Positions 2,829-44,049 are shown, counted from the first letter of the stretch. The stretch: DNA of 64,000 nucleotides from Patescibacteria group bacterium (GCA_038062895.1 JBBTWJ010000003.1:114448-178447), one strand, 5' to 3'. Numbers and translations are program-made. Notes: a model not told the origin generated them from the sequence alone.

Positions 2829-5114
2829 TCATGCCACAACCCCCATAAATTCAACCGTGCCGCCACAATATTCCACGATCTTCTCAACAGACTCATGGAG
2901 ACTGCGCGCAACTTGTTCTGATGTGATATCAAACACACCATCGACATTGATCCAAATATTTTTTGTCGCTTCCGTCACCATCGTGCGCTGGGCATCACGG
3001 AAGTTAAAATCGATATTATACCCGCCATCCTGATCATAATACGCAAGTTCCTTGGATGTGTATTTGGTCGCCCCGCTATCTCCAAGCAGTAATATTTCAT
3101 CTCCAACTCCCGCATATCGAAGTATGGTCGGAAACTTGACGGTATCGTAATCAAATGCACCGACCGATATCCGATGCTTCATGACAACGAGATTATATGC
3201 ATCCACACAGGTATTTATGGAATACAGTCCCTTACCCAATGCCACACGACGCAGTAAAGCCTCCGGAGAGGGACGCCGGGAATGCCAATCAATTCCCATT
3301 TCTTTATAGAGCTTACGATAACTTACGATCTCCGGATGCTGACCCAATTGTTCCGTCGTCAAACCCGCGAGAGATACAAGGAATTCTTTTTTTTCTGTTT
3401 CCAACTGTTCATTGAACTTTTGTATCTTTACGTCACGGATAAGCGCGATACCGATACTTGCCGAGGGATACCGCTCTTTTACCTTGGGATCGATCGAAAA
3501 TAAATCCGGTCTATCTATAGATTTCACTGATGACTGTTGTTTAGGTGATTGTGTTTTTTTGTTCAGCGTCAACCGTTCAACCATCACCTCAGTTGGAAAT
3601 TTTTTGAGTAACCACCCTGCCCGCGGCCCGTGCGGTTTATCCAGCGTGACCATATACAACGCATGAAATGCCTTTCCATGATCGATTTCATTTGTTTTTG
3701 CCAAGCGAAAAATTTCCGATTGCAACATTTCAGGATCATTTATTTTTGGCCAAATTATGGAAAGATCATTGAGAAACTTCCACTGTTCCTGGGATAATTC
3801 AATTTCATCAAATCGTTTCAAAGATATTTGATATCGATACTCATCCGGTGCATATTTACTTAACCAGACAGCTGTGTACGTTAAACGATCATTGAGAATA
3901 CGCTTCTCAAACTCACTCAATTGCGTACCTTTCACTGCTTCTAATTTACTCTGAAGGTCAACGTTAGGGAGCTGCCGATAATTAGCTATATCCCGAAATC
4001 TTGGTATAAATAATCCGGGAATTCGTGCGGGCACCTCTCCCGTTTGTGCATACTCAAACGCATGGGACAATTCTTCATCTTCCTCTTTGTTATACGCCTG
4101 CCAACAGCGATCATATTCATCAAAGAGATCCGGAATTGCCATCGTGCTCACAGGATCAAACTCAATTGCACGGTGGTAATCGGTTCTCGTGAAGAGAAAC
4201 CGCCCGATTGATGGAGGCAATAGCTTGGTAAGATCCCTCGCCTTGAGTCCTAACCCTTTTGATGAAGACATTTTTTTACCGCCGATAAGAATAAACTCGT
4301 ACGGCAAATTATAGGGGTTTGTAATATGGAATACTTCTTCACAAAGCGCTTTGGCAATATCGCGTGAACCACCAGCCGAGGAATGATCTTTTCCAGCGCC
4401 TTCAATCGTGACTCCGAGAACTTTCCAGTGTGCCGGCCAATCTACTTTCCACGGAAGCTTTCCGTTTCCATCAAAAGGGCTCACTGTACCGGTATGGCCA
4501 CATCCTTTCGTCCAAGTAACCATCGCCGGCTCACACGTATAAGAAACCATCTTACCGTCCCAACCATGCACCCGGGTCGTGCCCAGCTTCCCGCACTTCT
4601 CACAGATGACCTGGATGGGCATCCAGCCTTTCTCACGCTTTTTGCTCCCGCTTATACGCTGATAGATATCCTGTATCGTTTCCGAATTATCTAATGCTTC
4701 CCGGATAACTCCGTTAAACTTGCCTTCCCGGTACATATCCCAGGATGAAAGATACGTCGCCATCACTCCCATGCTCTTGAGCACCTGTTGAAAATCTTTG
4801 GTAAAATAATCGGCAAAACTCTCATACCCCTTTTCCGGAGACCGTGCGGTACGAAGGGGCTTACCCAACTCATCAGAGAGCGATGAAAGCTCGGGAGGTA
4901 ACCCGTCTATGGGATCGAAGTCGTTCAATACGTAGGTAAACGTCACGCTCTCGTTGGCTCGTTGAAGTGCCCGAAAAACCATATCATGTACGAGAGGTCC
5001 GCGAAGCGAGCCAATATGCGCAAACCCCGACGGGGTAAACATATCGTCCACCCAAAATGGCCGGTGGGCGCCGGAATCAATAATCTGTTTTGCAATTTTG
5101 TCTGCCCAAAACAT
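2829..5114 (-). CDS. lysK: class I lysyl-tRNA synthetase fused to a C-terminal B3/4 (tRNA-binding/editing-like) domain
   Basis: HIGS (HIGH-like) motif and the exact KMSSSKG signature of class I LysRS; the last ~230 aa resemble the PheT B3/4 domain. Confidence 0.85.
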   Translation of the reverse strand: MFWADKIAKQIIDSGAHRPFWVDDMFTPSGFAHIGSLRGPLVHDMVFRALQRANESVTFTYVLNDFDPIDGLPPELSSLSDELGKPLRTARSPEKGYESFADYFTKDFQQVLKSMGVMATYLSSWDMYREGKFNGVIREALDNSETIQDIYQRISGSKKREKGWMPIQVICEKCGKLGTTRVHGWDGKMVSYTCEPAMVTWTKGCGHTGTVSPFDGNGKLPWKVDWPAHWKVLGVTIEGAGKDHSSAGGSRDIAKALCEEVFHITNPYNLPYEFILIGGKKMSSSKGLGLKARDLTKLLPPSIGRFLFTRTDYHRAIEFDPVSTMAIPDLFDEYDRCWQAYNKEEDEELSHAFEYAQTGEVPARIPGLFIPRFRDIANYRQLPNVDLQSKLEAVKGTQLSEFEKRILNDRLTYTAVWLSKYAPDEYRYQISLKRFDEIELSQEQWKFLNDLSIIWPKINDPEMLQSEIFRLAKTNEIDHGKAFHALYMVTLDKPHGPRAGWLLKKFPTEVMVERLTLNKKTQSPKQQSSVKSIDRPDLFSIDPKVKERYPSASIGIALIRDVKIQKFNEQLETEKKEFLVSLAGLTTEQLGQHPEIVSYRKLYKEMGIDWHSRRPSPEALLRRVALGKGLYSINTCVDAYNLVVMKHRISVGAFDYDTVKFPTILRYAGVGDEILLLGDSGATKYTSKELAYYDQDGGYNIDFNFRDAQRTMVTEATKNIWINVDGVFDITSEQVARSLHESVEKIVEYCGGTVEFMGVVA

Positions 5115-5175: not shown

Positions 5176-5640
5176 TTATTCGATGTGGACTATCTTGTAA
5201 AGGATTTTACCCGCCGGTGCCTCTACTTCCACGCTATCTCCGGGCTTTTTCCCCATGAGGGCTTTACCCAGAGGAGACTCGTGGGAAATTTTCTTTTCCT
5301 TGGGATCTGCTTCCCACTCTCCTACTACGGTAAACATATCTTTCTTCCCGTTAACGTGAAGGGTGACTTTGCAGCCCACATCCACCTGTGTTTTACCGTG
5401 GCTCGTAACGACTTTGGCGCTATGAAGAATATCCTCAAGCTCGGCAATCCTACCATCTATGAACGCTAAATCCTGCTTGGCTGCTGCGTATTCACTGTTT
5501 TCCGAAAGATCCCCGAGGCTTCGGGCGTCAGAAAGCCGCGCCACAGCTACAGGACGCTTCGTTTTTACCAGCTCATCATACTCGGCTTTGAGTTCGTCGA
5601 GTCCTTCTTTGGTAAGCATCATTTTGTGATGTGGGTCCAT
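5176..5640 (-). CDS. greA: transcription elongation factor GreA
   Basis: LTKEGLDELKAEYDEL coiled-coil N-terminus and a C-terminal FKBP-like domain; the true start may be the internal MM at about 5619. Confidence 0.85.
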   Translation of the reverse strand: MDPHHKMMLTKEGLDELKAEYDELVKTKRPVAVARLSDARSLGDLSENSEYAAAKQDLAFIDGRIAELEDILHSAKVVTSHGKTQVDVGCKVTLHVNGKKDMFTVVGEWEADPKEKKISHESPLGKALMGKKPGDSVEVEAPAGKILYKIVHIE

Positions 5641-5743: not shown

Positions 5744-5817
5744 GCCGCCATCGTCTAGTGGCCTAGGACGGTTGATTCTCAATCAACAAACCGAGGGTTC
5801 GAATCCCTCTGGCGGCA
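5744..5817 (+). tRNA. tRNA-Glu (anticodon CTC)
   Basis: Cloverleaf with acceptor GCCGCCA/TGGCGGC, D-loop GTCTAGTGGCCTAGGAC, anticodon loop TTCTCAA and T-arm GGGTTCGAATCCC; no encoded CCA. Confidence 0.8.
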
Positions 5818-5908
5818 CTGAAGGGGTCCCCTGCACCAGTGATAAGCAGGGTGCAGAGCCACGTACTGAATTTTATTCTAGTACTGTGGCGACTCCCCTA
5901 CGCGCTAC

Positions 5909-7459
5909 TTAATTCAGGAGACCTAATTTGGCAAGACGCGATCTGATAGCGCCATTTTTTCTCTCGAATGTTTTAGACAAATCGCCCGTCGACCAACCTT
6001 TTGTATATAGATTCTTCAATTTCTCATCTTGTTCTTTGTCCCAAGGTCGGTAAGCGTTCGGATGTACTTCTCTAATTTTATCAAAACCCGTTCCACCATC
6101 GCTTTTCCCACCGCATCGGGCAATGAACTGCTTATGCATTGCCGCTATTTCCTCCCTTCCCATTTTAGTAAATGTATCGACTGTAGCCACCGACTGTGCT
6201 CTGAACGCCCCATCTTTGGCGACGATATCCGGATGCACCTGAAATGCGCGTTCGTTCCATCCGAGAATGTAGAGATCGGAAAGCCGCCGGATGCGCGAGA
6301 GCGCAACATATCCCTGACCAAATTCAAAAACGCCCGAGAGATCCACGACCGCCTTTTCCAATGTCATTCCTTGACTCTTATGTACTGTGATAGCCCAGGC
6401 CAGACGAAGCGGTAGCTGGGTAATCTGCGCCCGAATGGTACCGTTTTCTTCGACCGACCAATCCATGGGTTCAACGGTAATCTGTCGCCCGTTGCGTACC
6501 GTGACGATAGGATAGCCTTCCTCTTCATCAAATTCTCTAATCACCCCAAGCGTGCCGTTGACAAATCCTTCTTTGGGACTATTTTTCGTGAACATGACTG
6601 TGGCGCCAACTTTCAGAAGAAGCGTTTCAGGCGAAAGACACCCTTTTTTCAGGGCAGCTACCAACGCATCAGGACCTTGCGCGGACATGGGGAAACCACG
6701 CGGCTCGTCCGGAAGCTTCGCGAGCACCTCATCGTTGATGCGATCTACGTCTACGTTATGCGTGAATAGTTTCGGCGCGTTTTTCGGTACGGCTTGCGAA
6801 TGGGTTTTTCTCGCTTCAATCTGATGCAAGTGATCGATAGTGAACGCATTGCGCCGGATTGCTGAAAGTACGCCCAAAAAATCACGGTCGTCCTGTCGGT
6901 ATTGTTCGGTAAGGTAGCATACGGTTGGATTTGCCCCAATCCACGCAGAAGAATCATACGCGAATCGCGCTAATGATTTTTCAATGAGCGTGGCTTGTAC
7001 ACTTTGTTCTGTTTCTTTTTTTACCACTGGCGGCAGTTGAAAAAAATCACCGGAAAAAACTACCTGCATACCGCCAAACGGTTCCGGATGCTGTGTAATC
7101 TTACGAACTACCGCGTCAACCATGGAGAGCGTCTCGGGATTGAGCATGGATACTTCTTCGATGATAAGAACATTAGCCCGACGGACGCGCTTGGTAATAT
7201 ATTGACTGGATGCTATTTTTTGAAGATCGTGTTGAGAGAGCGTCGTTTTTATCCCTATCCCGCTCCATGAATGGATCGTCATCCCGCCGATATGGGTGGC
7301 CGCGATACCAGTTGAGGCCGTTATTGCCGGTTCAATACCCCGACCACGCAAATACGCTACATACTCGTTGATCGCATAGGTCTTGCCGCTTCCCGGCTCC
7401 CCGGTCAAAAAAACATTAGCGCCGGTTTTGAGTATGGCAAGTGCTTGAGATTGCGTCAT
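5909..7459 (-). CDS. PIF1/RecD-family ATP-dependent DNA helicase with a C-terminal HTH-like tail
   Basis: Walker A GEPGSGKT, AAA_30/UvrD_C_2-type layout, SF1B motifs. Confidence 0.75.
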   Translation of the reverse strand: MTQSQALAILKTGANVFLTGEPGSGKTYAINEYVAYLRGRGIEPAITASTGIAATHIGGMTIHSWSGIGIKTTLSQHDLQKIASSQYITKRVRRANVLIIEEVSMLNPETLSMVDAVVRKITQHPEPFGGMQVVFSGDFFQLPPVVKKETEQSVQATLIEKSLARFAYDSSAWIGANPTVCYLTEQYRQDDRDFLGVLSAIRRNAFTIDHLHQIEARKTHSQAVPKNAPKLFTHNVDVDRINDEVLAKLPDEPRGFPMSAQGPDALVAALKKGCLSPETLLLKVGATVMFTKNSPKEGFVNGTLGVIREFDEEEGYPIVTVRNGRQITVEPMDWSVEENGTIRAQITQLPLRLAWAITVHKSQGMTLEKAVVDLSGVFEFGQGYVALSRIRRLSDLYILGWNERAFQVHPDIVAKDGAFRAQSVATVDTFTKMGREEIAAMHKQFIARCGGKSDGGTGFDKIREVHPNAYRPWDKEQDEKLKNLYTKGWSTGDLSKTFERKNGAIRSRLAKLGLLN

Positions 7460-8499
7460 TTATTGTTTCTCTTTAACAATTTTTTCGCCAAGCGGTCAAA
7501 ATCTGATACGTAGTTTTTGTCCTGTATTTTTTTATATTTTTCATACTCAGCAAGGGCAAGAGTTTCTGCTACTTCATGGCTGATTCTTCCGGCGTCACCT
7601 AGAATTTGTCGCTCGTTAAATTTCAGAAAGGCGTTCAATCGTGATACCCAGTCCTTCATATACATGATAATCCCACGCTTTGCTTGCATTTCTGCATAGT
7701 CGAGGTACATAGTCACAATTCTGTTTAAGTGGTCAAGTTCTCTTTCATTCAAATAGTTTTTGGCGATCACGACATCTGACTCTCGAATGGTACCCTTTGG
7801 AGAATTTTTCCAAACAGTGAGCCCCATATATGACTTGGTACTATCAGCTCTTTCGTGTACTATCTCTGAGGCAGTTTTACCGGTGATGGCAAAGTGGAGT
7901 TTGTTTTGCACTGTTGCAAAAAATTGTTTGGTAATTTCTTCATCGGAATCATAATCAGCGCTGCACTGAGCGTAAATATCGGTAATTTTTTGATACATGC
8001 GCCTTTCGCTTGACCGTATATCTCGTATTCGTGCAAGCTGTTCCTCAAAATAATCCTTTCCAAAAATATTGTATGGGTCTTTTAGTTTCTCGTCATTCAT
8101 TGTAAATCCCTTGATGATATATTCTTTCAATCTTTCCGTCGCCCATATTCTAAATAGAGTCGCCTGCCGACTACTCACTCGATAACCAACAGAAAGAATA
8201 GCGTCAAGGTTGTAAAATTCCACATCTCTGGTAACCAGACGTTTCCCTTCATTTTGAACTTGTGCAATTTTTGCACTCGTTGAATTTTTGTCTAACTCGC
8301 CTTCCTGAAAAATGTTTTGAAGATGTTTGGTAACTACGCTTCTCTCCACACCAAAAAGATCGGAGATTTTTGCTTGCGTCAACCACACGGTTTCATCGCG
8401 CAAGAAAATCTCAACTTTTACCTGACCGTTTGGGGTAGTGTAAAGGAGAAACTCCGTAAAGCTATTATTTGGAACGATTTTTTTGTTGTTTTTTTTCAT
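7456..8499 (-). CDS. RhuM-family protein (DNA-binding protein typically clustered with restriction-modification loci)
   Basis: Strong match to the RhuM core (DLFGVERSVVTKHLQNIFQEGEL ... LSVGYRVSSRQATLFRIWATERLKEY); its start overlaps the helicase stop by 4 bp. Confidence 0.75.
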   Translation of the reverse strand: MKKNNKKIVPNNSFTEFLLYTTPNGQVKVEIFLRDETVWLTQAKISDLFGVERSVVTKHLQNIFQEGELDKNSTSAKIAQVQNEGKRLVTRDVEFYNLDAILSVGYRVSSRQATLFRIWATERLKEYIIKGFTMNDEKLKDPYNIFGKDYFEEQLARIRDIRSSERRMYQKITDIYAQCSADYDSDEEITKQFFATVQNKLHFAITGKTASEIVHERADSTKSYMGLTVWKNSPKGTIRESDVVIAKNYLNERELDHLNRIVTMYLDYAEMQAKRGIIMYMKDWVSRLNAFLKFNERQILGDAGRISHEVAETLALAEYEKYKKIQDKNYVSDFDRLAKKLLKRNNK

Positions 8500-15928: not shown

Positions 15929-18319
15929 ATGCGACGATCGACTACTATATATAGTATGAATGATCTACCGCGGGTCCGACTACCTGTAAACTCTGTCGAA
16001 GAATTACTCGCAAGTCACGCGGGTACATATGCTGATAAAGCGGCGCTCATCGCGGTTCACGTAGATACCGACGAGATCAATACGATTTCTTACCGCGAGC
16101 TGAACATCCTGGTCGGCCGGGCGGCAGCGTGGCTTTCCTCTCTGGGCATCAAGCGCGGTGACCGGTTTGCAATCCTCATGCCCAACGCTCCGGAAGTCAT
16201 AATCCTGGAACTGGCCGGTGCGATAATCGGGGCCGCAACGGTCCCGCTGGATTCCAAACGCGATACCATAGAACGCAAACTATTCAAATTAAAAGACACC
16301 GGCGCAAAAGCAATCCTTATCAAACAAGAGGAAAAATCTGCAGAAGAAAGAGAAACTCTTGCACAGGCATTACCGCATCTCACAATCCGCACATGGACCA
16401 CGTTTGGTGAATTTCAAACCATACTGACAGGGCCAGGCCCTGTCACTCACGCAAAGGGATCGCTTGAGGACTACTACGTGATCCTCTATACGTCAGGGAC
16501 AACCGCGCTTCCCAAAGGAGTCCTTCTTTCCACACGAGCGTGCCTGTTAAACGCTATGGGCATCCTACAGTGGCAACAATTTACTCACGATGATGTCTTT
16601 TCTATTGTGCTCCCGCTTCATCACATCAACTCGACAGAATTTAGTCTTGCTATGATACTCGCCGGCGGTACGATCGTTCTCAATTCCCGCTATAGCGCAA
16701 GCCACTTCTGGCAGGTAATCAACCGCTTCCGGATAACCAACACGAGTGTCGTTCCCACGATCCTCCACGATCTTCTTACCCGTGTCGATGAATTTATATC
16801 ATTACACCTGGATGTATCCTCACTTAAACGCATCTGTATCGGTTCAGCTCCTGTACTACCAGAAGAAACAATGCGATTCTACGATTCATTTAAGGTACGA
16901 GTCACTCAAGGATATGGCCAGACCGAAACTGCGCTGCGCGTGGCCGGTGTGCCGGTAGACACAAACGAAGAGACGTACCGCGAATTTGTCAAAAGCAACA
17001 CGATCGGTACCGAGCTTGCCAATAATCACCTCGCAATTATGGACGGGAATAATAATGAAAAGAACGAAAGCGAGGAGGGGGAAATATGCATAGCCGGCCC
17101 AATTCTCGCCGGTGGATACCTCAATAACCCGGAGGAATCAACAAAATCATTCAAAAATAGCTGGTTTCATTCCGGCGACCTCGGGTACTGGAAAATGATC
17201 GACGGCAAAAAATATTTCTTCATCATCGGGCGTATCAAAGAAATCATCATCAAAGGCGGAGTCAACCTCTCACCGTCTGCCATAGAAGATGCACTTCTCA
17301 AAGCATTTCCCCAAATCGATGAGGTGAGCGTCGTGGGATACCCGGATGCGCGTATGGGGGAAGAAATTGCAGCGGTTATAGTCTTGACAGGGTTGGACCC
17401 TGTCAAACAACAGGGCTCAACCCTAGCGGACAAATTTGTCCAATTAGTTTTAGATGCTGCTCAAAATGGAAAAATCTCCGGACTTTCCCGTTATGAGTCG
17501 CCCAAAAAGGTATTTATTGTCGATACCCTCCCGAAAACCTCGACCGGAAAAATCCAAAGAGTTGAGATAAAAAAAAGTGTTGCCACACGTATCAAAAGCG
17601 AGCACCCCCACCATTACTATGTCCGCACCATTGCTAATCATGAGACGGAAATCATGAAACAGGCTCTCAAGATAAATAACGCGCGGTTTCCGTTTATTCC
17701 ATCACTATTGGAGGAATTTATTGCTCGAACACAAAATGGGCTCTTTTTCGGTGTTTTTGATGAATCTGAAGGTCTGATCGGTTCTCTCTCCTGTATCAGG
17801 ACGAACCATACGATGATAGAAAAGGTCAAAACGTGGAATGAAGCAACCGCAGAGGGAACGCTCGCAAATCACGATCCCCACGGAGATACGCTTGCATGCG
17901 TGGCGATCTCTGTCAAAACAACATCGAACAATACAACAATACAACAATACAACAATACTAACGAAGATACATTACAACGCCTCGCAAAAAAATATATTAA
18001 AGAATACGTAAGTTTGGACAAAGATCACGTGCTAAATTTTCATAAACGATCCAAGGGAGGAATCCCTGGGGCTACGGTATGGAAAATTTTGGAAAACGGC
18101 AGACGGGAAGATAAAGAGGCCATAGGGTACAACGTCCTCATGAAGTATCCTACCATCGATGTATCCACAACTATTATCCGGAGTAACGCACCCTCTCCGG
18201 CAATTCTTCTCATCGAACACGCACTTCTTTACGCGAAAGAGCATGGAGTAAAAGATGTCATTGCGTTCTCCCGTCCTTCGGGGTTTCGAAAATATCTGGC
18301 AGAAAAACTACGGATATAA
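15929..18319 (+). CDS. ANL-superfamily adenylate-forming enzyme (acyl-CoA synthetase-like) fused to a ~250-aa C-terminal GNAT-like domain
   Basis: A3 YTSGTTALPKG, A5 GYGQTE, A7 YHSGDLGYW, A8 GRIKEIIIKGG, A10 PKTSTGKIQR; the C-terminal domain ends ...AILLIEHALLYAKEHG, which is acyltransferase-like. Confidence 0.7.
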   Translation: MRRSTTIYSMNDLPRVRLPVNSVEELLASHAGTYADKAALIAVHVDTDEINTISYRELNILVGRAAAWLSSLGIKRGDRFAILMPNAPEVIILELAGAIIGAATVPLDSKRDTIERKLFKLKDTGAKAILIKQEEKSAEERETLAQALPHLTIRTWTTFGEFQTILTGPGPVTHAKGSLEDYYVILYTSGTTALPKGVLLSTRACLLNAMGILQWQQFTHDDVFSIVLPLHHINSTEFSLAMILAGGTIVLNSRYSASHFWQVINRFRITNTSVVPTILHDLLTRVDEFISLHLDVSSLKRICIGSAPVLPEETMRFYDSFKVRVTQGYGQTETALRVAGVPVDTNEETYREFVKSNTIGTELANNHLAIMDGNNNEKNESEEGEICIAGPILAGGYLNNPEESTKSFKNSWFHSGDLGYWKMIDGKKYFFIIGRIKEIIIKGGVNLSPSAIEDALLKAFPQIDEVSVVGYPDARMGEEIAAVIVLTGLDPVKQQGSTLADKFVQLVLDAAQNGKISGLSRYESPKKVFIVDTLPKTSTGKIQRVEIKKSVATRIKSEHPHHYYVRTIANHETEIMKQALKINNARFPFIPSLLEEFIARTQNGLFFGVFDESEGLIGSLSCIRTNHTMIEKVKTWNEATAEGTLANHDPHGDTLACVAISVKTTSNNTTIQQYNNTNEDTLQRLAKKYIKEYVSLDKDHVLNFHKRSKGGIPGATVWKILENGRREDKEAIGYNVLMKYPTIDVSTTIIRSNAPSPAILLIEHALLYAKEHGVKDVIAFSRPSGFRKYLAEKLRI
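17927..17958. repeat. tandem octamer AACAATAC x4 inside the ANL-ligase CDS (encodes SNNTTIQQYNNT)
   Basis: Four perfect 8-nt units; 32 nt is not a multiple of 3 yet the frame is intact. Confidence 0.6.
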
Positions 18320-21517: not shown

Positions 21518-24130
21518 TTATCCAACACTTCCCTCCATTTGTAATTGAATAAGTCTATTTAATTCGACGGCGTACTCGAGCGGGAGTTCTTTGACGATGG
21601 GCTCGATAAATCCATTAACAATCATGGACTCTGCCTGTGCTTTGCCAATCCCGCGGCTTTCAAGATAAAATAGTTGTTCATCCCCGATTTTAGAAACTCT
21701 CGCCTCATGCTCGATCGACACATCCTGCTCATCTATCTTCATCGTGGGATAGGTATCGGAGCGCGAAGCAGCATCGAGCAGTAATGCGTCACAAACGACT
21801 TTACTTTTGCTGTTGGTGGCACCCGGGATTACTTGTACCAGCCCCCGGTACGACGTTCTCCCCCCGCCCCGGCTTATGGATTTGGAAATAATCTGTGATG
21901 TGGTTTCCGGCGCCAAGTGCACTACTTTCCCTCCTGCATCTTGATGTTGCCCTGCTCCGGCATAAGCAATCGAAAGGATTTCTCCGCGTGCTTTTCTCCC
22001 CACTAAATAGACGCTCGGGTACTTCATGGTGAGTTTGGAATTATGAACGATGAAGCCTTGTGAAATGAAATTGCCTGTCCCCTCAACTTCGATATCCCAT
22101 GTAGGAATCAGATCGGAGGACTGCTTAGAAACTACAACTGGCACTATCTCAACAGTGTTATGTAATGTAATGCTTGAGCGCCCGACGAGTCTATGCATTT
22201 GAAGTTTTTTTGTCGATCGCCCTAGTATTTGTTTACGCATACCCGTACTCACGAAGTTCGCAAATCTATAATCTATCGGAAAATCCAGCCTATACGCGCC
22301 ATGCGCGATAGATGACACACCTAAAATACGAACTCGTTTTGGTTGGCTGAATTCGACATGAAGTCGAGATGTAATTCCGAGCGTTACGAGAAGTGACGCA
22401 ATATCTTCCAAAAGCGGTCGATTGACCGATTTAATATGAAATCGGTCATCAATGTTCCCGTCGGCATCCAAGTAGCCTGCGATAAATGATAACCGTTGCG
22501 ACTGGGGAAGCGACCACACCCATTGAGGAACACGCTTAGTCGCTGCGGTACCTAAAAATCCGTTAAGGCGAAAAAGCTCTGTAATCTCTTTACTGCTCCA
22601 AGCGAGATGGTGACCATCGGATCGTTCGGTAGGTGCAATATTCGTCAACGTCCGCATACAACTCATTAAGCGTTCCCTTGCTCTATCTTGGCGAGGCGTC
22701 GAGAAACCAACTTTCGCCCAACGAATAACTCCTTTTGTTTTTCCAAAGCGCAAATCTATGTTGCCATCGCCAATCCAATACCCGAATAACCACATCATTG
22801 CATCATCTGTATGTGCTATTTTTATCATCCTGGCTGCTCTTATACGTGTCATTTTCAATGATGAAGCATACTGATTATATGATTCAAACGTTGTAATCAA
22901 CCCGGGCATCTTCAGTGAATATTGAGCACCATAATCAATAGAAACACGGGGAACAATTGCTTTTTTTAGCTGATCAGCACGGACGTATGCCAGTCGGTAC
23001 CGTCCGAGCTTCTTGGGTTTTTGGACATCGTATATATATGAATAAAATGGATGGTTAGCAGTAACTCTTAGTGTTCGTTTTCCGATGGAAACCGTATGTA
23101 CAGGTTGACGACCGGAAAAACGCTTCGCTTTTACTTTTTGGAAGCAGAGTATTCCTTTTTGGTCATCATAGGAGAGAACTTTATCACCTAACGCAAGAGA
23201 CTCAATTGTTTTCACTCCTTCGGGAGTAGTCACTGTCGAACCCTCTGCTAAACAACCTAAATTTCCGTCGACCCATTCCATGACGCCTTCCTCTTCTACC
23301 CGCGCGCGCTTGGTGACCAGGTTATAGACATTGGTACTCCAATTTTGGATGGTGGTGTAACGGACCCGCGCTCCCTTTTTCACAATGATCTCAACCACTG
23401 CGCTATGGAGTGAATCTGTCGTGTAAATGGGAGCGGTGCATCCTTCGACGTAATGGACGAAGCTCCCCTCCTCGGCAATGATGAGGGTGCGCTCGAACTG
23501 TCCCATGTTGGCCGCATTGATACGGAAATACGCCTGAAGCGGCAAGTCCACGCGTACGCCTTTGGGCACATACACAAATGAACCTCCGGACCAAACTGCG
23601 CTATTGAGCGCAGCAAATTTATTATCTCCGGGAGGAATAATGGTGCCAAAGTACTGTTTCACAATCTCCGGATGCTCACGAAGTCCCGAATCCATATCCA
23701 AAAAAATGACCCCTTTTTTGCTAAGCGTTTCATGAATACTTTTGTACACAACTTCCGACTCATACTGTGCGCTGACCCCCGAAAGAAATTTCTTTTCCGC
23801 CTCCGGAATGCCAATCCGGTCATACGTATCACGGATTTCTACCGGAAGATCCTCCCAGCGCGATGCACGTTTTTCCGTCGGATTAATATAGTAGTAGATA
23901 TCATCAAAATTGATAGTCGTGAGATCTCCCCCCCACGCGGGTAAGGGTTTGCGGAAAAATTGATCAAGCGCTTTCAGCCGGAACTGCCGCATCCAGGGAG
24001 GGTCATTTTTCCGTACGCTCAATTCTTCAACAACGGTGCGGTCGAGCCCTTTTTTTGATTTAAATACGTAATTTTCCGGCTTGCGGAAACCATATTTGTA
24101 ACTACCGTTTACTGGTTTAAATTGGAGCAT
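21518..24130 (-). CDS. sufB: FeS-cluster assembly protein SufB interrupted by a 405-aa intein
   Basis: Exteins total 465 aa and read as canonical SufB (...EWVDGNLG / SKLTMKYPSVYL...); the inserted segment starts with Cys and ends with His-Asn, followed by Ser. Confidence 0.9.
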   Translation of the reverse strand: MLQFKPVNGSYKYGFRKPENYVFKSKKGLDRTVVEELSVRKNDPPWMRQFRLKALDQFFRKPLPAWGGDLTTINFDDIYYYINPTEKRASRWEDLPVEIRDTYDRIGIPEAEKKFLSGVSAQYESEVVYKSIHETLSKKGVIFLDMDSGLREHPEIVKQYFGTIIPPGDNKFAALNSAVWSGGSFVYVPKGVRVDLPLQAYFRINAANMGQFERTLIIAEEGSFVHYVEGCTAPIYTTDSLHSAVVEIIVKKGARVRYTTIQNWSTNVYNLVTKRARVEEEGVMEWVDGNLGCLAEGSTVTTPEGVKTIESLALGDKVLSYDDQKGILCFQKVKAKRFSGRQPVHTVSIGKRTLRVTANHPFYSYIYDVQKPKKLGRYRLAYVRADQLKKAIVPRVSIDYGAQYSLKMPGLITTFESYNQYASSLKMTRIRAARMIKIAHTDDAMMWLFGYWIGDGNIDLRFGKTKGVIRWAKVGFSTPRQDRARERLMSCMRTLTNIAPTERSDGHHLAWSSKEITELFRLNGFLGTAATKRVPQWVWSLPQSQRLSFIAGYLDADGNIDDRFHIKSVNRPLLEDIASLLVTLGITSRLHVEFSQPKRVRILGVSSIAHGAYRLDFPIDYRFANFVSTGMRKQILGRSTKKLQMHRLVGRSSITLHNTVEIVPVVVSKQSSDLIPTWDIEVEGTGNFISQGFIVHNSKLTMKYPSVYLVGRKARGEILSIAYAGAGQHQDAGGKVVHLAPETTSQIISKSISRGGGRTSYRGLVQVIPGATNSKSKVVCDALLLDAASRSDTYPTMKIDEQDVSIEHEARVSKIGDEQLFYLESRGIGKAQAESMIVNGFIEPIVKELPLEYAVELNRLIQLQMEGSVG
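22040..23254 (-). mobile_element. intein with a LAGLIDADG homing-endonuclease domain inside sufB (residues 293-697)
   Basis: N-terminal CLAEGSTV splicing block, two LAGLIDADG motifs (LFGYWIGDGN and IAGYLDADGN), C-terminal ...FIVHN followed by +1 Ser. Confidence 0.85.
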
Positions 24131-42651: not shown

Positions 42652-44049
42652 TTATTCCTTTTTTGGTCGCACGGAAATTCCCAGCTCAATGAGCTGCTCG
42701 GAAGTGGCGGCACTCGGTGCGTCCATAACGGAAATCTGACCGGAGGCACTGGCTGGATACGCCATAACCTCCCGTACGCTTGGCTCGCCAAGGATAGCCA
42801 TAAGGAATCGGTCAATGCCCGGCGCAATACCGCCGTGAGGCGGAACGCCATAGGTGAAAGCGGTAAGCATATGGGCAAACTGGGATTTTTGCTTATCGGT
42901 AAATCCGATGAGATCAAACACTTTTTCCTGTATCTCTTTTTGGTGAATCCTGATGCTCCCCCCACCTACCTCGTAGCCGTTGAGAACCAAATCATGTTGT
43001 AGACCCCTTACTTTGAGAGGATCGATCTCCAGAAGCCCTATGTCATCCGGGTGGGGCGACGTAAACATATGATGGGACGGGGCAAACTTGGCTTTCCCGG
43101 ACCCGTGATAAAAATCCTCTTGAGACTGCTCGGTAAAGAGCGGAAAATCTATGGTCCAGGAAAACGCGAGTTCGTTGGGATCTTTTTTGTCTTTGCGCAG
43201 ATCCGGCTTATCCGTGCCATACTTAGCTTTGGCTTCGGCATGGGGAATGCGCGGCCAGGGTGATTGGGAAATATGTTTCTCCGGAAAAAGCTCGATGACG
43301 AGCTTGGTAAATAAATCTTCGGCGATGGTCATGATGTCATTTTGCGTAATGAAGGACATTTCCATATCAAGCTGCGTAAACTCACCGTACGCGCGGTCAT
43401 GCCTCGGGTCTTCATCCCGGAAACAGCGCGCGATTTGGAAGTACCGCTCGAATCCCGCGACCATAAGAAGCTGTTTGTATTGCTGCGGGCTCTGGGGAAG
43501 CGCGTAAAACTTGCCCTTCTGGAGACGCGACGGCACGATGAAGTCCCGTGCCCCTTCCGGCGTGGTCTTGGTTAATATAGGTGTTTCTATCTCGACAAAA
43601 TCATGTCCGCTCAAATAATTGCGGATAAACATCGTCATTTTTGAGCGCATCCGAAGATTCCGGTTCATCCGCGGCCGGCGCATATCCAGATACCGATATT
43701 TGAGCCGGATTTCTTCATTAATTTCGAGCCCATCCGTATCGATGGGAAACGGAAGCTCACGGGCTTTGGATACAATTTTTAACTCTTTCACTTCCACCTC
43801 AACCGTGCCGGATTCTAATTTGGGATTAATCATGGATGCCGGACGCTCCTTCACTAGTCCCACGACTTCGATAACGTCTTCAGGACGGGCATCCCCTTTA
43901 TCCTTGGTCGATACCAATTGCACGATGCCAGAACGGTCCCGGAGATCCAAAAACATGATCTTCCCGTGGTCGCGCCGTGCCCCGACCCAACCCTGAAGGA
44001 GCACTTCCTGACCGACTTTTTCTGTAATCTCCCGTGCAAGTGTACGCAT
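42652..44049 (-). CDS. aspS: aspartyl-tRNA synthetase, bacterial type without the GAD insertion domain
   Basis: OB-fold N-terminus, motif 2 FRDEDPRHDR and motif 3 GGIAPGIDRF; at 465 aa the length implies no GAD domain. Confidence 0.9.
   Translation of the reverse strand: MRTLAREITEKVGQEVLLQGWVGARRDHGKIMFLDLRDRSGIVQLVSTKDKGDARPEDVIEVVGLVKERPASMINPKLESGTVEVEVKELKIVSKARELPFPIDTDGLEINEEIRLKYRYLDMRRPRMNRNLRMRSKMTMFIRNYLSGHDFVEIETPILTKTTPEGARDFIVPSRLQKGKFYALPQSPQQYKQLLMVAGFERYFQIARCFRDEDPRHDRAYGEFTQLDMEMSFITQNDIMTIAEDLFTKLVIELFPEKHISQSPWPRIPHAEAKAKYGTDKPDLRKDKKDPNELAFSWTIDFPLFTEQSQEDFYHGSGKAKFAPSHHMFTSPHPDDIGLLEIDPLKVRGLQHDLVLNGYEVGGGSIRIHQKEIQEKVFDLIGFTDKQKSQFAHMLTAFTYGVPPHGGIAPGIDRFLMAILGEPSVREVMAYPASASGQISVMDAPSAATSEQLIELGISVRPKKE

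Follow-up and report, generated by a model that had tools for sequence, protein, structure and literature searches.

Lysyl-tRNA synthetase (LysRS) is a textbook synthetase which exists in two unrelated classes and for which, to our knowledge, no separate editing domain is known, and the question arises what a complete module of an editing-domain fold is doing at the C-terminus of the class I LysRS of a Patescibacteria group bacterium (candidate phyla radiation, CPR). The gene in question lies at 2829..5114 on the minus strand of a 64-kb stretch of DNA, hereafter the window, and encodes 761 aa plus stop from an ATG in a single open reading frame (ORF), the domains of which were identified by Pfam and NCBIfam; residue numbers are those of the 761-aa protein throughout, and all parts of the gene given below lie on the minus strand. 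What is new is an appended, predicted editing domain, of a known fold, on a synthetase family without a known editing domain. We regard the structural and evolutionary description of this fusion as close to certain, while its most plausible role, which we hold with somewhat better than even confidence on the strength of sequence and structure comparisons, would be that of an active tethered post-transfer editing domain clearing mischarged tRNA-Lys.

A genuine fusion with a wide distribution

By family, the N-terminal 520 residues are a class I LysRS, the predicted activity of which would be the lysylation of tRNA-Lys. The catalytic (Rossmann) domain (residues 1-356, 4047..5114) matches tRNA-synt_1f (PF01921) over residues 2-356 with 294 bits (E 1.4e-87), and the NCBIfam equivalog TIGR00467 (lysS_arch) reaches 335.1 bits against a cut-off of 147.55 over residues 1-515, covering all 515 model positions. 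The translation contains HIGS as the class I HIGH motif (residues 33-36, 5007..5018) and KMSSSKG as the KMSKS motif (residues 281-287, 4254..4274). Across 75 homologues G35, S36, K281, M282, S285, K286 and G287 are invariant and H33 is at least 90% conserved, and the catalytic domain further holds an invariant four-Cys cluster (C171, C174, C194 and C205). The helical anticodon-binding C-terminal domain follows at residues 357-520 (3555..4046), as delimited by the TIGR00467 coverage and an all-helical AlphaFold2 model, and is connected by a linker (residues 521-538, 3501..3554) to the complete CtdA-like B3/4 module (residues 539-761, 223 aa, 2832..3500), a predicted aminoacyl-tRNA deacylase (editing) domain. 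Within the latter, the Pfam B3_4 core (PF03483; residues 599-736, 2907..3320) scores 70.9 bits against a gathering cut-off of 29.3 (E 1.3e-19). ORF, motifs and both family models agree in this with the original prediction, made from the sequence alone, which had described a complete class I LysRS over the first ~520 aa followed by a B3/4-like region and had quoted from it the peptide GVGDEILLLGDSGATKYTSKELAYYDQDGGYNIDFNFRD, found as such in the C-terminal part of the translation.

Could the two parts have been joined artificially, by an assembly or gene-calling error that fused two separate genes? We consider the chance of this negligible and have rejected misassembly, against which the original prediction had cautioned. 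The ORF is uninterrupted, the identical protein is found on 5 contigs (P0001, annotated 'lysine--tRNA ligase [Patescibacteria group bacterium]'), and all of the 120 best database clusters (55-100% identity) have the PF01921 plus PF03483 architecture, their named sources being Gottesmanbacteria, Levybacteria or 'Patescibacteria group'. The genomes of 72 GTDB species, contributed by many independent projects, contain the same continuous ORF. It is for this lineage also incorrect that the architecture would be uncommon, as had been assumed, since a scan of the GTDB species representatives with two module peptides returned at least 322 genomes that encode a relative of the module, with Gottesman-, Levy-, Roizman-, Daviesbacteria and other Microgenomates as the named best matches. 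Among the best 80 of these 322 loci, 77 could be parsed, and in every one of them the module shares an ORF with LysRS (72 class I, 5 class II, none free). Database entries for the LysRS-B3/4 fusion proteins read just 'lysine--tRNA ligase'. As a side remark, many GTDB representative records in which this gene, typical of Microgenomates, is found bear titles such as 'uncultured Gammaproteobacteria', 'Candidatus Acidiferrales' and 'Methylomirabilota' (L002, L007, L008, L030, L038 and others); these metagenome-assembled genomes were probably submitted under generic or wrong organism names.

Both parts of the protein appear to be under selection. In an alignment of 75 class I fusions, which also underlies the other conservation figures, 15.2% of the columns are invariant in the catalytic domain, 6.1% in the anticodon-binding domain, 16.1% in the B3/4 module and 23.9% in its Pfam B3_4 core, and family members share on average 71% identity with the window protein over the module but only 62% over the LysRS body, from which we conclude that purifying selection on the module is at least as strong as on the synthetase core. 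The linker has no invariant columns and a mean identity of 26% to the window protein; between positions 515 and 541 there are anywhere from 25 to 41 residues, depending on the family member, and in the full-length AlphaFold2 model (predicted local distance difference test, pLDDT, 88; predicted template modelling score, pTM, 0.65) residues 522-528 of the linker are disordered (pLDDT <50). The module is hence joined to LysRS by a flexible tether of ~18-30 residues.

The module has the fold of CtdA

If the module is a B3/4 domain, the next question is from which kind of protein it derives. CtdA, a canavanyl-tRNA(Arg) deacylase (PDB 9f7e and 9mkl; PMC10018355, PMC12449066), was the best match of residues 518-761 in a sequence search against solved structures (9f7e, E 9e-4; 9mkl, E 0.011), in which the beta subunit of phenylalanyl-tRNA synthetase (PheRS) reached only E 0.2. 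With the module as query, phmmer returned 1935 matches at E <= 1e-3 among 1.84 billion cluster representatives; entire free-standing proteins of 225-240 aa are matched over their whole length by its residues ~15-234, which implies that the appended piece is an entire stand-alone B3/4 protein and not a PheT sub-domain. AlphaFold2 modelled residues 535-761 with confidence (pLDDT 94.4, pTM 0.91), and a Foldseek search with it placed CtdA first (E 4e-16, TM 0.83-0.84 normalized on either partner), the match extending over the full length of the fold and including the CtdA-specific helical insert. Sequence identity between the two is only 18-19%.

The original prediction had called the module PheT-type, and one could imagine that a PheRS-beta-derived B3/4 editing domain, with its chemistry of the Tyr or m-Tyr type, was transplanted onto LysRS. 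Pfam B3_4 is named after PheT, the GAFD of the module resembles the HAFD of PheT, and PheRS-beta was the second-best structural match (TMq ~0.6). The module and the PheRS beta B3/4 domain also share an Asn (E. coli N254, corresponding to N641) together with the local AFD motif. We nevertheless consider such an origin very improbable and have rejected it in favor of a CtdA-like one, as the pheT_bact model gives 11.7 bits against a cut-off of 402.65 and PheRS-beta is the weaker match by sequence and by Foldseek. A Pfam scan of the fusion protein found none of the other PheT domains (B1-B8 context).

Pocket residues of the module

In CtdA, the aminoacyl pocket is formed by N105, G116, E118, C166, Q173 and I189; the N105A, G116H/W and Q173G mutants are inactive, and C166 tunes the specificity for canavanine and Arg (PMC12449066). 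A HMMER alignment to 9mkl, in which the chain numbering is offset by +2 as confirmed with the residue names of the paper, and a second, independent alignment by MAFFT gave the same correspondence, namely N105 to N641, G116 to G652, E118 to F654, C166 to N700, Q173 to D707 and I189 to N723, and thus a predicted aminoacyl-binding pocket encoded within 2946..3194. All six positions are invariant in the 75-sequence family. The scaffold required for activity in CtdA (N641 and G652) is accordingly retained, and the specificity-determining residues are swapped for another fixed set. With F, N, D and N in the place of E118, C166, Q173 and I189, a specificity for canavanine can almost certainly be discounted. 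The signature of CtdA proper, with a strictly conserved C166 plus E118 and Q/E173, is absent, N700, F654 and D707 standing in its place, and orthology to CtdA in the sense of canavanine editing was rejected on the basis of these three specificity residues and of LysRS as the partner. The module does not show the editing-site set of PheRS either (H265, G318, E334 and R244 in E. coli numbering): H265 corresponds to G652 and G318 aligns with Q173 of CtdA, hence with D707, so that the PheRS signature is lost through these replacements as well.

The same subtype on two unrelated LysRS classes

Does the pocket tell anything about the partner? We surveyed the architectures of the best 150 representatives. 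In this set the module occurs C-terminal to class I LysRS and also C-terminal to genuine class II LysRS (10 out of 10 tested scored above the TIGR00499 and NF001756 cut-offs), the class II fusions partly with extra pieces (HDIG, DUF2000 or tRNA_bind). Further relatives are free-standing, joined to ankyrin repeats (P0249), N-terminal to tyrosyl-tRNA synthetase (TyrRS; P0255), N-terminal to class II LysRS with a CtdA-like signature (P0228 and the fragment P0204), or N-terminal to arginyl-tRNA synthetase (ArgRS) in five proteins (P0191, P0215, P0216, P0224 at L083 3001-5676, and P0236, which has two copies).

The ArgRS-fused modules keep the CtdA-like PGxE and CxxWNxRE signature (E118, C166, W and E173), and the pocket of both the ArgRS- and the TyrRS-fused relatives is CtdA-like, unlike that of the window module. 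The signature of the latter (DWHSRP, SxGAFD, NxxF/YNxRDxxR and NxDG) is essentially unchanged on the class II fusions P0127 (module 59% identical), P0133, P0138, P0142 and P0143. The pocket signature therefore tracks the synthetase partner. The same signature is found in P0126, a free-standing gene of 229 aa (L081 4001-4690) which is 60% identical to the window module and has no LysRS on its 12.8-kb contig; its neighbors are a redoxin/DsbD-like gene, an FAD oxidoreductase and an acetyltransferase. In their own right, the ArgRS fusions look as if they might perform canavanine/Arg-type editing in cis; ArgRS-fused CtdA-like modules are not mentioned in the CtdA papers.

In a neighbor-joining tree, class I and class II fusions interleave, with P0127 (class II) as sister to P0129 (class I), and a bootstrap support of 51/60 was obtained for a subclade that comprises 10 class I and 5 class II fusions together with 1 free protein. 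Judging from source names and GTDB record titles, the class II fusions likewise come from Patescibacteria (Levybacteria, Parcubacteria and Microgenomates), where they stand beside plain class II LysRS and class II LysRS with an HD domain. One subtype on two non-homologous enzymes that share only lysine and tRNA-Lys, and that also exists in trans, is the pattern expected of an editing factor of the lysine system. Whether Microgenomates-type Patescibacteria LysRS of both classes acquired the same dedicated post-transfer editing domain independently and repeatedly is, in our estimation, an evenly balanced question. With respect to the original prediction, the fold superfamily and the idea of an editing role held, the PheT assignment did not, and the convergence between class I and class II had been missed.

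Apart from these points, we observed that some Patescibacteria LysRS of either class carry further tails after the B3/4 module, namely an HD domain of the HDIG type (~200 aa), DUF2000 or an inserted tRNA_bind domain (EMAP/PheT-B1-like), examples being P0064, P0273, P0138 and P0141 and the loci L052 and L070; many class II LysRS of Patescibacteria have the HD tail without B3/4.

A hydrolytic role is not the only one that can be imagined for such a module. As a non-catalytic appendage, it could grip the acceptor arm or the CCA end in order to raise the affinity for tRNA-Lys or to hand Lys-tRNA over to EF-Tu in an organism with a reduced genome. We regard this as unlikely, as the invariant positions include those of a small-molecule pocket and not the surface alone, among them N641 and G652 of the catalytic scaffold, as the signature changes with the synthetase partner, which is expected for amino acid specificity and not for generic tRNA binding, and as the only characterized close relatives (CtdA) are hydrolases.

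Alternatively, the module could be an active deacylase with a target unrelated to LysRS errors, acting in general or canavanine-type trans-editing and fused for co-expression in a streamlined genome. The flexible and variable linker and the lack of confident docking would fit an action in trans, P0126 shows that the subtype also occurs unfused, and CtdA itself acts in trans on tRNA-Arg. This explanation appears rather improbable to us, considering that the same subtype was repeatedly joined to both non-homologous LysRS classes, that the 77 parsed of the 80 best GTDB loci show no partner other than LysRS, that the ArgRS-fused modules form a different signature group, and that none of the CtdA specificity residues C166, E118 and Q173 is retained.

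A possible mechanism of tethered editing

How could an editing domain at this position work? In the mechanism that we propose for a tethered post-transfer editing domain, the N-terminal 520 residues would recognize and esterify tRNA-Lys and occasionally attach a near-cognate amino acid instead of lysine. Before the product is released, or by re-sampling it at once, the module would then bind the aminoacylated CCA end in a pocket of the CtdA scaffold (N641 and G652) lined by the aromatic F654, N700, the acidic D707 and N723, and would hydrolyze the wrong ester while sparing Lys-tRNA-Lys. The tether to LysRS would supply the specificity for tRNA-Lys that a small free deacylase lacks. As the same module is found on the C-terminus of two folds with variable linkers, tethered re-sampling is favored over rigid docking.

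With regard to the substrate, F654 and D707, compared with Glu118 and Gln/Glu173 in CtdA and the ArgRS-fused modules, would fit a cationic side chain, as would the choice of LysRS as the partner. Candidate substrates, which are speculative, could be Arg on tRNA-Lys or non-cyclizing lysine analogues of the thialysine, oxalysine or hydroxylysine type. The self-cyclization of ornithine and diaminobutyrate esters is established chemistry, and these two amino acids are less likely substrates because no editing domain would be needed for them.

Several points weigh against an active editing domain of the lysine system. For every family member, hydrolytic activity and substrate are predictions from sequence, and since four of the six CtdA pocket residues differ, activity is not transferable by orthology. 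Class I LysRS reportedly discriminates better than class II, so that it is not evident why editing would be required. The attachment point of the module is the C-terminal anticodon-binding domain, which in known class I LysRS structures is far from the active site, and the pTM of the full-length model is only 0.65, with no confident docking of the module. Lastly, bootstrap support is weak for the larger LysRS-associated clade (13/60) and zero for the CtdA/ArgRS clade (0/60), the deep branches of the module tree being poorly supported accordingly; the signature group without P0146 is not monophyletic, and the supports given refer to clades that were defined from the tree.

Genomic context

Upstream of the LysRS gene, at a distance of 61 bp and on the same strand, lies greA (5176..5640, minus strand; Pfam GreA_GreB_N and GreA_GreB), and the two genes are probably co-transcribed. 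An Rfam scan found no Rfam element in the gap between them, no riboswitch or leader near the LysRS gene and, in the window as a whole, two tRNAs and nothing else. The window contains no second LysRS and no other B3/4 gene. Its sole class IIb paralogue is an AspRS (42652-44049, minus strand), which is of the bacterial type, has 465 aa and matches the aspS models of 586-590 positions in two separate stretches, suggesting that the usual insertion (GAD) domain is missing.

A few features elsewhere in the window deserve mention. SufB (870 aa, 21518-24130, minus strand) has a LAGLIDADG_3 homing-endonuclease domain at about residues 545-595, between SufBD_N and SufBD_core, and probably contains an intein. 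A PIF1-like helicase (516 aa) and a RhuM-family 'virulence' protein (347 aa), with an overlap of 4 bp between them, occupy 5909-8499 (minus strand); the pair adjoins tRNA-Glu(CTC) at 5744-5818 and may represent a mobile or defense-related islet beside a tRNA gene. Finally, an AMP-binding (acyl-CoA synthetase-like) enzyme of 796 aa (15929-18319, plus strand) has ~250 residues past AMP-binding_C without a Pfam match.

Significance and comparison with known systems

In a standard review, proofreading by LysRS consists only of pre-transfer cyclization in the class II active site and of the trans factors ProXp-ST1/2 (PMC7373986). Full-text literature searches returned no description of a LysRS-B3/4 fusion, and the CtdA papers present CtdA as stand-alone and mention neither a fusion nor LysRS or lysyl. 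If our interpretation is true, no LysRS would have been known to possess an editing domain before this one, and LysRS would join the synthetases with post-transfer editing. The module would then also point to a fidelity problem that has gone unrecognized at the lysine codons of these organisms, with Arg or a non-cyclizing lysine analogue as examples. The CtdA fold, being also found on ArgRS and TyrRS, would represent a general, partner-swappable editing cassette, and the recently discovered CtdA family would extend from one stand-alone canavanine-specific enzyme to a cassette with partner-matched specificities. The swap between class I and class II around a constant module would constitute a natural experiment on the cooperation of an editing domain with the synthetase body. 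The invariant pocket residues N641, G652, F654, N700, D707 and N723 are ready targets for mutagenesis, and the module would give a concrete way of testing how CPR bacteria, which obtain their amino acids by scavenging, control the quality of translation.

Compared with known systems, the canonical class I LysRS of archaea and spirochaetes (TIGR00467) has the same equivalog body with HIGS, KMSSS and the Cys4 cluster, but ends at about residue 520-530 without an editing domain. CtdA is free-standing and belongs to the ArgRS system, whereas the present module is covalently fused to LysRS. LysX, in which class II LysRS is combined with the lysyl-phosphatidylglycerol synthase MprF, is also a natural LysRS fusion with an appended domain that acts on Lys-tRNA; that domain, however, is a membrane-bound transferase with a different purpose and is found on class II LysRS only. 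The B3/4 domain of bacterial PheRS beta, which hydrolyzes Tyr- and m-Tyr-tRNA(Phe), belongs to the same superfamily (PF03483) and exemplifies cis editing on a synthetase. AlaRS and AlaX, the INS domain of ProRS and YbaK/ProXp, and the N2 domain of ThrRS and ThrRS-ed follow the same pattern of one hydrolytic module that exists both fused and free, as is the case here with P0126. The folds of these pairs are unrelated to that of the present module, which stands apart from them by its occurrence on two non-homologous synthetases for the same amino acid.
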